Under the pieces are notes generated by a model. The model was not told the origin of the DNA. It did no database searches and saw nothing but the letters and a program-made list of their open reading frames with translations. Shown piece after piece: positions 1,784 to 54,382 of a DNA stretch of 64,000 nucleotides (within the stretch, counting starts at the first letter, position 1; the number at the start of each line of letters is the position of its first letter). Position numbers and translations under genes: made by a program. The DNA comes from a virus, in IMG/VR virus record IMGVR_UViG_3300033146_002242, positions 1-64,000 of that record; one strand, 5' to 3'.

Positions 1784-1797
1784 TATATATATTAATT
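1784..1797 (+). promoter_or_regulatory. Putative early promoter TATATATATTAATT
   Basis: Identical 14-mer at 1784 (+), 2227 (+) and 51335-51348 (-), each heading small early-type genes or RNA leaders. Confidence 0.55.
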
Positions 1798-1865
1798 AGT
1801 GTATAAGAGAAATTGATTTCTTATACCTTGTAGATGATCCACTACAAGTAAAATATTAAACGGAA

Positions 1866-1943
1866 ACCGCAGACCGGGTGCGGGATATAAGACGGTAAAG
1901 TTCCTTAATAGGATGGGAACTTTTAAAAATAAAAAAGATCCTA
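1866..1943 (+). ncRNA. Tandem H-type pseudoknots in leader of small ORF (CptI-like PK1 plus PK2)
   Basis: PK1 CCGC/GCGG with ACCG/CGGT; PK2 AGTTCC/GGAACT with loop TAGGAT pairing to ATCCTA; covaries with the copy at 2484. Confidence 0.65.
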
Positions 1944-1962
1944 ATTGCTACAAGGAGGTATT

Positions 1963-2151
1963 ATGAACGAATGTAAACACCCCGCAACTCTGGACGATAT
2001 TCGCAAATTTAACATGGACGATAAAAACCCACATCATCCGAAGGGACGGGTGTGGGAAACACATAACGAGGTATTCTATATACCTCGTTATGATGGAGTG
2101 GAAGGAACAGATGGAGCAGTCACTGACATCCTTCCTCTTGATCTTGAATAG
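1963..2151 (+). CDS. Small hypothetical protein
   Basis: AAGGAGG RBS before ATG 1963. Confidence 0.6.
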   Translation: MNECKHPATLDDIRKFNMDDKNPHHPKGRVWETHNEVFYIPRYDGVEGTDGAVTDILPLDLE

Positions 2152-2156
2152 TAATA

Positions 2157-2197
2157 ACCCGCAGCTGGACCTACTGCGGAATATAAATTAATAGGTC
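2157..2197 (+). ncRNA. Divergent copy of the CptI-like pseudoknot
   Basis: CCGCA/TGCGG stem, loop GACCTA pairs with TAGGTC, same AATATAAA linker; compensatory changes relative to other copies. Confidence 0.6.
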
Positions 2198-2302
2198 TTT
2201 TTTTTATTTTAAAAAAATATTTTTATTATATATATTAATTATTGCTATAAAATATATTTGATATTTTATAGTATTATTTCAACTTTAAAAAGGAGGCTAG
2301 TG

Positions 2303-2443
2303 ATGAGAAAATCACTTGAGCTGTTCTTTTTGGAATTGTCTGTTAAGTTCCATCCAACCCATCCCATAGTCAGAGATATTCTATATAAGATATCTTTGAC
2401 CCTGGGCAATTATCCAAACACGGATGATTGGGGTTGGGATTAA
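2303..2443 (+). CDS. Small hypothetical protein
   Basis: AAGGAGG RBS upstream of MRKSLELFF. Confidence 0.45.
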   Translation: MRKSLELFFLELSVKFHPTHPIVRDILYKISLTLGNYPNTDDWGWD

Positions 2444-2451
2444 CTTGTTGC

Positions 2452-2772
2452 GTACAGGGAATTCGATTGGCGAATCCCTGTACACCGCAGACCGGGCGCG
2501 GGATATAAGACGGTATATCTCCTCATACGGATGGGAGATCTCATAAATAAAAAAGATCCGCTAACCCCCGGAGAATAGTAGCTAACTCCGTTATCAAAAA
2601 AGCATGTAACTGGGTGATGCAATGTCGTCACCTGCGGTACTGTAGAGTCAAGTACCCGTCTAGGAGTTGGGAACCTAGGGACATATACACGTTAAAACTC
2701 AGCATTCCCGTGTGTGGATTAATTCGGGACAGATATAGCAAGACTATATCGAAGCCAACATGGTGGTATACC
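2452..2772 (+). ncRNA. ~320-nt multi-hairpin, multi-pseudoknot structured RNA
   Basis: GC-rich non-coding island with many stems (GTACAGGGA/TCCCTGTAC, PK1, ATCTCC/GGAGAT, CGGAG/CTCCG, GGTGA/TCACC, GGTAC/GTACC, CTAGG/CCTAG, TCCCG/CGGGA, GATATAG/CTATATC) and loop-to-linker complementarities. Confidence 0.65.
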
Positions 2773-2798
2773 ATGCTCTGCATTTTTTTTTAATCAAA

Positions 2799-5039
2799 TT
2801 ATCCACATGCTGAATAACCACATGAATGGCAAATAGAACAACCTGATTCATAAGATATAATTCCACCACAATCAGGACATGAACCTCCCTTGTGAATATC
2901 TGTAAAATTTTCAATATCATTTTTTTTGTCTTTATTACCATTCATTTTAATATGTTTTTTAATACATTGTGCAATAGCATCAGCACATGATAAAACTTTA
3001 TTTTCACCAAATCCAATTGGTCTATGACATGATATACCAATTAGTTGTTTAACAATTTCTTCTGGTTTTTGACCACTTCTACATGCTAAAGAAATTAATC
3101 GTCCTATAGCTTCACATTGACTGGATGAACACCCACCCGCTTTTCCAATTGTATTAAAGATTTCAAAAACATTACCATCTTCATCTTCATTAATTGTTAT
3201 ATAAATATCACCACAACCAGTTGTAAATTGATATGTATATCCTTTTAATACATTAGGTCTTTCTTTTTTAATTCTTTCTTTTTGAGCATATTCTTCTTTA
3301 TTTTCTTTTTTTGATTTAATATTTAAAACTTGATTTTGACGGCAATTATTTCTATAGACAGTTACACCTTTACAACCACTTTCAAAAGCCATCATATATG
3401 CTTTTTCAATATCTTTTTCTGTAGCTGATTCTGGAAAATTAATTGTTTTACTAACAGCATTGTTTGTATATTTTTGAAAAGCTGCTTGAATTTTAATATG
3501 TTCTTCTGGTTTAATATCATGTGCAGTTTGTAAAAATAATTTATATTCAGATGGGATATCTTCACAATTTTGACATGTTCCTTCTTCTGCAACTTGTTTG
3601 ATTATTTTTTCTTTATCAATTTTATATCTATCATTTATTTCATCAAGAATTTTATCAAAAACTGGATTTACTTCGAAAAATTCTTTGCCATCCATAATAC
3701 GTCTGACATATGCTAATGAAAATAATGGTTCGATACCACTAGAACAATTAGCTATAATTGATATTGTTCCGGTAGGCGCAATAGTTGTTCTAGTGGAATT
3801 ACGTATGGGGTCTTCTTTGCACTCTGGATATGCACCTCTTTCTTCTGCTAATTGTATTGATTTACCTTTAGCTGTATTATTAATAACTTGCATAACCACA
3901 GATGCAAATTCAACTGCTTTTTGAGAAGAATATGGAATACGTAATTTTATCAATGTATCCGCAAATCCCATAACTCCTAATCCAATATTACGAGTTTTTT
4001 TAGTTTCTTGTTCAATCATTTTTAATGGATACTTATTCATTTCAATTACATTATCTAAAAAATGAACAGCATTATCAACAATGGTTTTCAAACTATTGAA
4101 ATCAAAATATCTTTTTTCTTCATCAACAAATTTTGATAAATTAATTGAACCTAGATTACAACTATCACCAGCTCGCAACACCTGTTCACCACATGGATTA
4201 GTAGCTTCATATTTACCTAAATGTGGTGTTGGATTATAATCATTCATTCTATCAATAAAAATAATTCCAGGTTCACCTGTTTTCCATGCTTGATGTACAA
4301 TTTTATTAAAAACTTCTTTTGCGTTTAATTGTTTAACTATTTTATTATTTCGTGGATTTATTAAATTATATGTGGTGTTATTTTTTACTGCGTCCATAAA
4401 AGAATCGGTGACAGTAACAGAAATATTGAAATTATTTAACTGTGTCAAATCGGCTTTACATTCAATAAATTCAAGTATATCAGGGTGGTCAATACGAAGT
4501 ATACCCATGTTAGCCCCCCGCCTTGTACCACCTTGTTTGACCTCTTCTGTAGCCGCATTATATATTTTCATAAAGGAAATTGGACCTGATGAAACACCAG
4601 ATGTTGATTGCACTTTATCATTTGATGGTCTTAATCGAGAAAAAGAAAACCCTGTACCACCACCAGCTTTATGTATCATTGCAGTATGTTTTAATGTATC
4701 AAATATACTTTCCATTGAATCTTCAATAGGTAAAACAAAACAAGCTGATAACATTGGATTTTTCTTACCAGCATTCATTAATGTTGGAGAGTTTGGCATA
4801 AATTTTTGATTTATCATCATTGAAAAAAATTTATCAGCAGTTTCATCTATATATTCAGATCCATAATTCAAATCACCTTTGGCAATAAAATCAGCAACTC
4901 TATGAAACATTCCATCGGGAGTTTCTAAAAAATTCATATCTTTATCTTTCAATAAATATCTTGTTTCTATTACGTTTTTAGATGTTACTGTTAAATTAAA
5001 AATATTTTTTTCCAACATGAATATTCTCCTATTGAGCAA
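2799..5039 (-). CDS. nrdJ: Adenosylcobalamin-dependent (class II) ribonucleotide reductase with C-terminal TSCPD/Zn-ribbon region
   Basis: [45 protein letters not shown] motifs; C-terminal [17 protein letters not shown]; likely start 5018 (MLEKN). Confidence 0.92.
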
Positions 5040-50265: not shown

Positions 50266-51198
50266 TTAGTTATTCCAGTTTATCTGACCTGGAGTAACTT
50301 TTCCATAACAGTTAATGGTGATGTTGAAATTAGCCTGAGCTATTTCAACATCACCATTTTCTGTTATTTTAATTTTCACCGGGGCCGGCGAAACAACCGC
50401 CAACCCCGGCTTTCCATTGATATCAATTCCCGACCCAGGGATTACAATAGCTGGATCGGGGATATCTTCTTCATCGCCATCACTACAAATGATGGCGATG
50501 TCATCTACACCTCCCTTCTTTTTTAATACACCTCCGATTACAAGGTGTTCCATTTTGCTATCATTGGGGTCGGCTGCGAACCACGCCGCTAAATCCCGCA
50601 GCCGATCGTTTAATATTTTTTTCTCAATAGGTGAATCTGGTACCAGGCCTCGATTCACCCACACTTCAAAACCCCCAGCTTCCACCTTGTAGAAACTGGG
50701 AGTAACTAATTGCTTAGCCTTGTCCATAAAGGACTCGGCTTTTTTATTTTTTGTTGCGGTTTCTGTCTTATTATTAATCAAGTCAGTGGAGCAATTCCTG
50801 ACTTGATTAATGGCCCATGGCGCTGCTGTTGCCATGATTCCAATAGCAACAGCAGCAACTATGTGTCCTTGAAGGAGATTGGCCGACTCCTCCAAACCCT
50901 TGCCGACAATCAGGTTCTTTACGAACCAAATTCCGGCAAGGGAACCAATTCCTAGAATAATTAACCCGCCCAATGGATGGTTTCCCATCCACCAGCGGGT
51001 TATATAAAAACCAGCTGGGGCCGAGCATATTGCCCAGCACCACAGCCAGAATCCCCTATGGGATTCATCAAGACGACGAATCCCATAGAATGCCCCAATA
51101 ATGGTCAGGAAGGTCCCGACCATTAATAGATCATTTACTGTTATAGCGATGCTGTGCAGCACCGCCATTACTTGTTCATAAATAGTTTGTTCGTTCAT
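50266..51198 (-). CDS. Multi-pass membrane protein, GC-richer than flanks
   Basis: Four hydrophobic helices then a soluble domain; AAGGAGG RBS. Confidence 0.7.
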   Translation of the reverse strand: MNEQTIYEQVMAVLHSIAITVNDLLMVGTFLTIIGAFYGIRRLDESHRGFWLWCWAICSAPAGFYITRWWMGNHPLGGLIILGIGSLAGIWFVKNLIVGKGLEESANLLQGHIVAAVAIGIMATAAPWAINQVRNCSTDLINNKTETATKNKKAESFMDKAKQLVTPSFYKVEAGGFEVWVNRGLVPDSPIEKKILNDRLRDLAAWFAADPNDSKMEHLVIGGVLKKKGGVDDIAIICSDGDEEDIPDPAIVIPGSGIDINGKPGLAVVSPAPVKIKITENGDVEIAQANFNITINCYGKVTPGQINWNN

Positions 51199-51231: not shown

Positions 51232-51263
51232 TACCGTTTTATATTCCGCGCCCGGTCTGCGGT
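51232..51263 (-). ncRNA. CptI-like pseudoknot, distant copy in a gene leader
   Basis: ACCGCAGACCGGGCGCGGAATATAAAACGGTA, nearly identical to copies at 1866 and 2484. Confidence 0.65.
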
Positions 51264-51503
51264 CTCCTATTTAATTTATATACCATAGTAGGATTAACTA
51301 TGGTCACAATAACAATAAGATTGTTATTAGTATTAATTAATATATATAATAAAGTTGAGTTAAATAAATTGATAATTTATTATTTTTATTATAATTAAAT
51401 AGTGTTATTATATATATTCATTCTTGATATTTGAGATTGGTTTTTATTTTTAGAGAACATAAAAATACATTCATATATTATATTGCAAGGAGGTTTAAAC
51501 GAT

Positions 51504-52094
51504 ATGAATTCTATAGAGAAACCATCATATAATTATGATTTGATTATTTTATTTTCGGGTGGTGCTGATAGTGCCATGTTACATGATTTAGCAATATCAT
51601 CAAAAAGACATCCAATTTATTTAATGATTGATTATGAACAATTGCATAAAGAAGAATTACAATATGCTAAAAGATTGTTAGAATATTGTAAATCTATTCA
51701 ACATTCACAAACTGTAAAAATTCAGAATTTAAAAATAAATTCTGGTTTGACAGGTGATGGTGAAGTAAATCAATATAATAATGTTCATCCTTTTCATGTA
51801 CCATCTAGAAATCTTATGTTTATCTCGATTGCAGCTTCTATTGCAGAAGCTAATAATATTGATACTATTTGGTATGGCGCTGATTTATCAGATAGGGAAA
51901 ATTTATTTCCTGATTGTTATCAGGAATGGATTATAAAAGTTAATGAACTTTTGAAAATAAATGGAAGTAAACCAATAAAATTGGAAGCTCCATTAATAGG
52001 AATGACAAAAGATTCTATTTTACAATATTTGAAATCTAGAGGTTATAGAGAAGAAATTATTTTTTCTGGATATGGTAATTTAGATAAAAATTAA
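51504..52094 (+). CDS. queC: QueC-like (7-cyano-7-deazaguanine synthase family) protein lacking the C-terminal Zn cluster
   Basis: FSGGADS, DYEQLHKEE, VPSRNLMFISIAASIA, FPDC; late-promoter motif at 51454-51467. Confidence 0.8.
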   Translation: MNSIEKPSYNYDLIILFSGGADSAMLHDLAISSKRHPIYLMIDYEQLHKEELQYAKRLLEYCKSIQHSQTVKIQNLKINSGLTGDGEVNQYNNVHPFHVPSRNLMFISIAASIAEANNIDTIWYGADLSDRENLFPDCYQEWIIKVNELLKINGSKPIKLEAPLIGMTKDSILQYLKSRGYREEIIFSGYGNLDKN

Positions 52095-54022: not shown

Positions 54023-54382
54023 GCCCGGATGGCGGAATAGGTAGACGCAAGGGACTTGACTCGTAAATAAATTGAGCGGCATATTTGAAAAAATATGTTT
54101 GAATCGGGTGAATTCAGGGGAACCTTCTTAATTTTATTTAGAATTAAATGGCAATCCTGAGCCAAGACATCAACGCTTTGATGGAAGGTGCAGAGACTAG
54201 ATGGTGAGGAAAGATACGTTTCTCGTAAAACATCATAAGCGCCCGACACCTAAGGATTTTATTTTAATCTATGGTGATGATATAGTCCAGACCACAAACA
54301 TTGTAAAATGGCAATGAAAATTGTAGTGGTACGAAAATCCCTCGTTCGTAAGAACGTGCCGGTTCGATTCCGGCTCCGGGCA
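54023..54382 (+). tRNA. trnL: tRNA-Leu(UAA) interrupted by a group I intron
   Basis: Exons 54023-54057 and 54334-54382 rebuild the cloverleaf with AGGGA-CTTAAAA-TCCCT and a long variable arm; AACA-TATAAT-TA motif at 54003-54014. Confidence 0.92.
54058..54333 (+). mobile_element. Group I intron (IC3, trnL-type), 276 nt, no ORF
   Basis: GGCAATCCTGAGCC, GTGCAGAGACTAGATGG and ATATAGTCC core motifs; 5' exon ends in U, intron ends in G; inserted between U34 and A35. Confidence 0.9.

Follow-up and report, generated by a model that had tools for sequence, protein, structure and literature searches.

The window analysed here, the first 64,000 nucleotides (nt) of the IMG/VR virus record IMGVR_UViG_3300033146_002242, carries five copies of a small H-type pseudoknot that, judged by primary structure and pairing potential, appear to be real members of the structural class of CptI, the antitoxin RNA of the type III toxin-antitoxin family cptIN. 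The copies are not tandemly repeated, no cognate toxin gene is found in the record, and the flanks of the best conserved copies are unrelated to the tails of CptI; we therefore class them as CptI-class pseudoknots without a toxin and not as CptI antitoxins. A preliminary description of this DNA had interpreted four of them as possible early-expressed RNA decoys against type III toxin-antitoxin defence. That interpretation is partly supported, and a decoy role for such orphan pseudoknots, although the likeliest of the roles considered, is a tentative proposal that we hold to be somewhat short of probable.

Pseudoknot copies and their folding

The five copies belong to two types, A and B, and a second kind of pseudoknot, PK2, lies beside two of them:

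1866 to 1897, plus strand: type A pseudoknot A1, with stem 1 CCGCA/UGCGG, a one-base G loop, stem 2 ACCG/CGGU and a 9-nt AUAUAA loop
2484 to 2515, plus strand: type A pseudoknot A2, an exact match to the type A 32-mer
51232 to 51263, minus strand: type A pseudoknot A3, an exact match to the 32-mer, scoring 11.7 bits with a CptI model
2158 to 2206, plus strand: type B pseudoknot B1 followed immediately by a terminator-like T-run, the pseudoknot itself being 2158 to 2197
51265 to 51304, minus strand: type B pseudoknot B2, a newly found fifth copy that abuts A3 on its 5' side
1899 to 1943, plus strand: second pseudoknot PK2a, with stem 1 AGUUCC/GGAACU, stem 2 UAGGAU/AUCCUA and a 16-nt A-rich loop
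2517 to 2560, plus strand: second pseudoknot PK2b, with stem 1 AUCUCC/GGAGAU and stem 2 CGGAU/AUCCG

The three type A sites named in the preliminary description are exact matches to one degenerate 32-nt motif, which gives no match in shuffled sequences, is not expected anywhere by chance and does not occur again in the whole 118,287-bp record. Pairing enumeration allows an H-type pseudoknot in all five copies. The earlier statement that all copies fold in this way holds as pairing potential, but the two type A copies with Y = C in the motif have a stem 1 of 4 base pairs (bp) and an A.C mismatch instead of 5 bp, unlike the third. The diverged copy reported to keep both helices is real and corresponds to B1; its pairing is confirmed, with CCGCAG/CUGCGG as stem 1 and GACCUA/UAGGUC as stem 2. 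B2 has ACCAUAG/CUAUGGU as stem 1 and UCCUA/UAGGA as stem 2 and is clearly related to B1, the two differing by fully compensated pairs, two in stem 1 and one in stem 2. Pairs in the phage copies were counted by script; a MAFFT alignment of types A and B misplaces the stem 1 columns.

Four differing stem-2 sequences are fully complementary across AUAUAA, namely ACCG/CGGU (type A), GACCUA/UAGGUC (B1), UCCUA/UAGGA (B2) and CCUAGCA/UGCUAGG, the last of these in an RNA of another viral contig, L108, described below. Compared with shuffled tails, stem-2 pairing has P = 0.08 for type A, 0.001 for B1, 0.08 for B2 and 0.002 for L108, and the product over type A, B1 and B2 is about 7e-6. Because stem-2 complementarity is kept and in view of these P values, the pseudoknot is supported, though not proven, as the fold of the transcribed strand.

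PK2 follows directly 3' of A1 and of A2 and has a long A-rich loop. As read from the sequence, PK2a and PK2b differ by three compensated pairs. The 32-nt core is near-invariant in the three type A copies while their flanks are unrelated and the neighbouring PK2 has diverged with compensation, a pattern that fits sequence-specific recognition of the folded core.

Resemblance to CptI

The 45-nt CptI(Er) unit was recovered as the reverse complement of primer CptI-WT (PMC4627078, Table 2). It is identical to L119:5109-5153 and agrees with every numbered residue in the text of that paper (G13, U30, G35, G44 and A45). The CptI string given in the preliminary description is exactly nt 7–38 of this unit, and the likeness it proposed holds. 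Over the first 26 core positions, type A and the second-repeat form of CptI are identical at 21. Both have stem 1, the single-G loop 1 and the AUAUAA A-minor loop (A27-A32), and in stem 2 they share C15-C16-G17. The type A copies include the equivalents of A29 and U30, and mutation of either residue in CptI abolishes antitoxicity (PMC4627078). The type A stem 2 lacks the two loop-proximal pairs of the CptI stem 2.

All type A copies match the signature ACCRCWGACCG, 1–4 nt, GYGG, N, AUAUAA, which is limited to positions common to CptI and the phage copies and was written after both were known. A scan of one genome per prokaryote species with this signature gave at least 120 loci against about 9 chance matches expected. 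Among the loci listed, nearly all come from Lachnospiraceae or other Clostridia, many contain two or three matches exactly 45 nt apart, and 42 have a CptN-type open reading frame (ORF) no more than 450 nt downstream. An example CptN from one such locus matches the NCBIfam CptIN family with an E value of 2.7e-55 and the CptN chain of PDB 4RMO with an E value of 4.7e-79. True cptI arrays alternate between ACCAC/GUGG and ACCGC/GCGG and vary in the base after GYGG and in the A or G after AUAUAA; these naturally variable positions of CptI are the positions at which the phage copies vary.

CptN clusters at E <= 0.001 number 1,177, and divergent ones were sampled for an upstream CptI. The diverse CptI units have a constant design with a freely covarying stem 2, in which 96% of the cells are paired and 7 of 10 pairs are double-changed; pairing drops to 27–44% in slid controls. 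The AUAUAA loop is common, not universal, among these subfamilies. Type A has the layout of 11 true CptI units, in which stem 1 is followed by a loop 1 of one base, then by stem 2, and an A-rich loop of about 9–11 nt runs along stem 1. One divergent cptIN locus (L243/L244:1060-1200) lies beside a phage integrase and is therefore prophage-borne. Between its two repeats there are differences in both stems and in the A-rich loop, every one of them compensated.

With a covariance model of Er-type CptI (50 units), the type A copies score 13.0–13.5 bits (E of 0.2–0.3 per window, 0.22–0.32) over model positions 7–33 only. With a broad model of 11 diverse true units in which stem 2 is paired, they score 10.1–13.5 bits (E 0.36–2.5), A1 being the top match in the window at 13.5 bits. 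The type A copies are the top three matches of the 118-kb record and align end to end, and B1 is in the top five. L251, a true unit left out of the broad model, scores 13.6 bits, level with type A. The best CptI-like sequence of the record coincides with a repeated element that, independently of this, has the right topology and loop lengths, and the conjunction adds weight to a likeness whose overall strength is modest. A partial CptI-model match at 82805 lies inside an ORF and was set aside as chance.

At E <= 10, a search of positions 1700–2900 against Rfam matched neither ToxI nor preQ1, SAM-II or any further family of relevance, the best matches being unrelated ones of 10–24 bits. B1, and B1 only, matches PhotoRC-II (RF01717) at 18.1 bits, below the gathering score of 39. 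A tmRNA-like reading of the pseudoknot chain was dropped, ARAGORN having found none.

Promoter-like motif and cassettes

Only three exact sites of TATATATATTAATT exist in 118 kb, and all of them precede pseudoknots on the same strand. All five copies lie downstream of this shared promoter-like motif, as the preliminary description had stated of the four it listed, and all three exact motif sites are followed by copies. Besides the pseudoknots, the cassettes contain the following features:

1784 to 1797, plus strand: promoter-like motif copy 1, overlapping a weak sigma-70-like TTTAAA-N18-TATATT match that is not above shuffles
1801 to 1850, plus strand: two leader hairpins 5' of A1, read from the sequence
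1963 to 2151, plus strand: ORF of 62 amino acids (aa) with an AAGGAGG ribosome-binding site and no family match
2227 to 2240, plus strand: promoter-like motif copy 2, an exact match
2303 to 2443, plus strand: ORF of 46 aa with no family match
2452 to 2483, plus strand: 13-bp hairpin directly 5' of A2
2561 to 2795, plus strand: structured tail, rich in G+C and lacking a credible ORF, with a hairpin and T-run terminator at its end
51335 to 51348, minus strand: promoter-like motif copy 3, an exact match
50266 to 51198, minus strand: ORF of 310 aa with a membrane-like N-terminus, downstream of B2-A3

The copies sit in 5' leaders, right after stop codons or in long structured RNA, among other hairpins and pseudoknots. 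A2, PK2b and the tail 2561–2795 together make an RNA of about 350 nt; the stretch 2444–2795 has no credible ORF and folds better than shuffled sequences (z = -3.3). The tail has a G+C content of 43–47%, compared with 26% for the record, and no Rfam match. A homologue search with the 310-aa ORF gave zero relatives.

Two further ORFs adjoin the cassettes. ORF 51483–52094 on the plus strand, divergent from the B2-A3 cassette, encodes a putative QueC-like PP-loop protein (SGGxDS motif, identified by eye), which suggests 7-deazaguanine metabolism. A 132-aa ORF at 1229–1627 on the plus strand, beside the first cassette, has a single homologue, P0153 (70% identity), among 5.8 billion proteins, and P0153 sits on a JGI contig of 17 kb; no other relative of the cassette region is visible.

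The phage

The window is the first part of a record of 118,287 bp with 26% G+C. CheckV puts its completeness at 38%, and the phage is therefore a jumbo phage. It encodes a class II ribonucleotide reductase and a multisubunit RNA polymerase with a distant likeness (30–33% identity) to those of Bacillus phages AR9 and PBS1 and Listeria phage LPJP1. Its host is likely a low-G+C Firmicute. Most large proteins of the record have no PHROG match, a blastn search against INPHARED gave no relatives of the phage, and IMG/VR searches for related loci with the 310-aa ORF, the 132-aa ORF, the RNA polymerase subunit and an alignment of the 132-aa ORF found none.

At the Rfam gathering threshold, the whole window yields only tRNAs, of which four are encoded, and one group I intron. 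The intron (54055–54306, plus strand, 76.9 bits) lies inside a G+C-rich stretch at 54.0–56.2 kb, and the 680-aa ORF downstream of it matches phrog_1735 with an E value of 2.7e-254. Another G+C-rich segment, at 79.7–81.3 kb of the record (79700–81300; L257:501-2009), is the gene for a gp23-like major capsid protein, and the reading of G+C-rich islands as foreign DNA is weakened by it.

Orphan CptI units and related stem-loops in other phages

The CptI signature was found at three loci in IMG/VR, and the available sequence of each lacks a CptN gene. The human-gut phage L254, whose genome of 107 kb is complete, has two tandem near-perfect CptI units (L254:450-560) and no CptN. L255 (IMGVR_UViG_2910649936_000002) is a 91%-complete provirus of 151 kb with one perfect unit within 14580–14700, also without CptN; this unit starts 3 nt after the tRNA-Asn gene of a five-tRNA array, and the same arrangement is present in the chromosome of Mediterraneibacter hominis (L118:6246-6365). 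L256 has a promoter, one CptI unit (minus strand, about 4790–4815) and a terminator, and its missing CptN counts little because the sequence is a 5.3-kb fragment that is about 8% complete. A literature search found no report of orphan phage CptI. From their sequences, the near-perfect or perfect orphan units of L254, L255 and L256 are candidate natural antitoxin decoys, and they make the decoy concept credible for the CptI family.

The stem and loop of the window copies also recur in another setting. Contig L108 (IMGVR_UViG_3300012931_000220) carries at 325–705 an intergenic RNA of about 370 nt that is structured (z = -5.5); it lies upstream of lysis-like genes, with no toxin gene nearby. This RNA contains a CCGC..GCGG-A-AUAUAA pseudoknot with a 7-bp stem 2, scoring 18.7 bits with the CptI model, and a second hairpin, CCGCAG..CUGCGG-UGUAUAA. 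Such recurrence with an unrelated stem 2 suggests a portable and very stable triple-helix module.

A loose IMG/VR scan with CCGCAG..GCGGNATATAA gave 117 loci, which is about chance level plus one abundant gut-phage family. In that family (L001:2935-2985 and about 80 similar human-gut phage loci, including L002, L008 and L030) a hairpin of CCGC, 7 nt and GCGG is followed by (A/U)AUAUAAG about 25 nt upstream of the start codon of a scaffold-protein gene, and stem-2 pairing is inconsistent; the hairpin may be a late promoter or leader element. Given the chance numbers and the inconsistent stem 2 of the gut family, the loci from the loose scan were rejected as relatives, except L108 and perhaps L004.

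A possible decoy role and its alternatives

In a decoy mechanism, H-type pseudoknot RNAs of the CptI structural class would be transcribed from the phage, each with a G+C-rich stem 1 (CCGC/GCGG) clamped by an A-minor loop containing AUAUAA, a one-base G loop and a short stem 2 of free sequence. Cassettes in two accessory regions of this AR9/PBS1-related jumbo phage would be driven by the phage-specific promoter-like motif, with one copy carried in the ORF-less RNA of about 350 nt. Produced with no toxin of their own, these antitoxin-like RNAs would then bind and blunt a host endoribonuclease of the CptN family. We infer the transcription of the knots, its early timing, their folding in vivo and any binding of a toxin.

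As the preliminary description had noted, no cognate toxin gene is adjacent to the copies. CptN is absent from the whole 118-kb record (38% complete) by a 42-sequence hidden Markov model, by alignment and by NCBIfam NF047359, all with positive controls that matched, and ToxN (PF13958) is absent from the same 118 kb. The lack of a toxin gene counts against membership among CptI antitoxins and for a decoy; the observations that follow weigh against a decoy role, several of them also against membership. The copies are single and lie 290 nt to 49 kb apart, B2 and A3 being adjacent yet of different types, whereas cptI arrays are tandem direct repeats of 1.9–3.4 units of 40–48 nt (PMC3401426). The flanks of the three type A copies are unrelated to each other and to the CptI tails, and the UUGA/AAGUUU processing junction is missing from the phage copies, A1 alone having AAAGUU 3' of stem 2. 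The unconserved flanks count against antitoxin membership because, in the complexes whose structures have been solved, it is chiefly the single-stranded RNA ends that the toxin holds (PMC4627078; PMC13682666). The type A stem 2 is shortened to 4 bp with a 3' strand that differs from that of CptI, and toxins of the CptN type show specificity towards their own CptI, according to the legend of Fig. 6 in the source.

Searches for the phage-type string gave no cognate bacterial or metagenomic locus. The string is absent from 401 Lachnospiraceae genomes except for one match with one mismatch, it has zero occurrences in IMG/VR, and in JGI metagenomes it has one chance match inside a gene. The model scores carry limits of their own, with true CptI units at 68–77 bits on the Er-type model, an unrelated window site at 15.3 bits on the same model, and false matches of the broad model in G+C-rich coding DNA at 13–14.6 bits. 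Because the element was picked for its likeness to CptI, these scores are circular and do not amount to independent significance. The type B copies and L108 have the same stem 1 and AUAUAA loop with a quite different stem 2 and loop 1, and stem 1 with the AUAUAA loop may be a general building block. Abortion of phage infection by cptIN has not been demonstrated (PMC3401426, PMC4627078), and the record is only 38% complete.

The main rival to a decoy role, in our view somewhat less likely than it, is that the knots are cis-acting architectural modules, that is, very stable triple-helix structures that shield the transcripts from host exonucleases, form RNA ends or take part in termination, with the likeness to CptI arising by convergence on an A-minor twist. 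Their position in leaders, after stop codons or in long structured RNA amid other hairpins and pseudoknots is consistent with this, as are the T-run directly after B1, the combination of this stem 1 and AUAUAA loop with other, unrelated stem 2 sequences in B1, B2 and L108, the unconserved flanks and CptI-model scores that lie within noise. It leaves unexplained, however, why the agreement of type A with CptI goes past stem 1 and the loop to include the G loop and the GACCG strand, and why a near-invariant 32-nt core stands beside a PK2 that drifts with compensation; in addition, the RNA that carries one of the copies contains no ORF that could be regulated. Strict conservation of the core in three transcripts with one promoter motif would also be expected of an operator for a phage protein that co-regulates or cuts all three cassette transcripts, a control like that by T4 gene 32 or RegA, and a partner gene could exist in the 62% of the genome that is unsequenced. 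There is no candidate protein, though, as neighbouring ORFs have no family match, and the spacing from the knots to the ribosome-binding site ranges from about 25 to 55 nt, with one copy having no downstream ORF; we regard an operator as improbable.

Mobile promoter/stem-loop cassettes have been described in T4-type phages, and the signal could similarly act at the level of DNA, with the RNA fold incidental, either as such cassettes or as functionless remnants of a captured cptI. The copies are indeed accompanied by an exact promoter-like motif and placed in accessory regions that are G+C-rich and crowded with ORFs lacking relatives. In addition, ATATAA is similar to a -10 element, and the gut-phage family has CCGC..GCGG-N-ATATAA at promoter distance from the scaffold gene with inconsistent stem-2 pairing. 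All window copies are nevertheless on the transcribed strand, and four sequences keep stem-2 pairing across ATATAA, which points to a folded single strand; G+C-richness is no proof of foreign origin, as the capsid gene at 79.7–81.3 kb illustrates. We regard this explanation as distinctly improbable. Extremely improbable is a small-molecule riboswitch built on a compact pseudoknot, for example a preQ1-like one. The H-type topology with an A-rich 3' loop resembles preQ1-I and the QueC-like ORF 51483–52094 adjoins the B2-A3 cassette, but this ORF is divergent and the knots lie on the other strand from queC, Rfam gives no riboswitch family at E <= 10 in positions 1700–2900, none of the copies except B1 overlaps a terminator or a ribosome-binding site, and downstream of one copy there is no gene. 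The operator, the DNA-level cassette and the riboswitch are each less well supported than the architectural module.

Should the decoy role hold, it would have several consequences. Experimental knowledge of RNA mimicry of a type III antitoxin is confined to a single phage and a single family, namely phage TE with its pseudo-ToxI, and if the knots neutralise a CptN-type nuclease, RNA decoys would extend to the cptIN family and to jumbo phages. Such decoys would be indirect evidence, the first of its kind, that cptIN defends its native hosts against phages, and would imply that the canonical tails are dispensable and a compacted pseudoknot core is enough. A broader version, in which type A, type B and PK2 (which fits the general description of TenpI) are made from one promoter class as a multi-decoy array disarming several type III toxin-antitoxin defences, with phage-borne orphan antitoxins as a widespread counter-defence, is quite unlikely, although the orphan CptI units of other phages hint at the latter. 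Even if the decoy role fails, the CCGC/GCGG stem, the AUAUAA A-minor loop and the free stem 2 would form a recurrent portable module common to antitoxin and phage leader RNAs.

Comparison with known systems

CptI(Er) and the type A copies have in common an H-type pseudoknot whose stem 1 is CCRC/GYGG with the same A-U/G-C alternation, a single-G loop 1, a stem 2 whose 5' strand is GACCG, and about 9 nt of A-rich loop in which AUAUAA is embedded. They differ in that the phage copies are single and dispersed whereas CptI(Er) forms a 45-nt tandem array with cptN downstream. The phage stem 2 has 4 bp and another 3' strand, through net deletions of 3 nt and 1 nt, and the phage copies lack the AAGUUU 5' tail and the GGGUUGA 3' tail that carries the processing site. 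The PhotoRC-II and preQ1-I leaders resemble the copies in having a hairpin loop that pairs downstream across a UAUAAA-like linker and in occurring in phage 5' regions; PhotoRC-II, however, is sub-threshold on B1, and the preQ1 families are unmatched at E <= 10.

The orphan units of L254, L255 (with L118) and L256 are, like the window copies, phage-borne and without CptN in the available sequence. They are Er-type CptI units, near-perfect or perfect and with their tails, whereas the window copies are a diverged and compacted core. The published analogue of a toxin-less phage antitoxin RNA is pseudo-ToxI of Pectobacterium phage TE (PMC3475682), which resembles the ToxI of a known host, forms a short tandem repeat and has a function shown genetically. 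Unlike pseudo-ToxI, the window copies are CptI-like and not ToxI-like and are dispersed in messenger RNA leaders and a long non-coding RNA. What the window copies and pseudo-ToxI share is a likeness to a type III antitoxin in an RNA carried by a phage with no toxin, and a role, proposed or shown, in escape from abortive infection.

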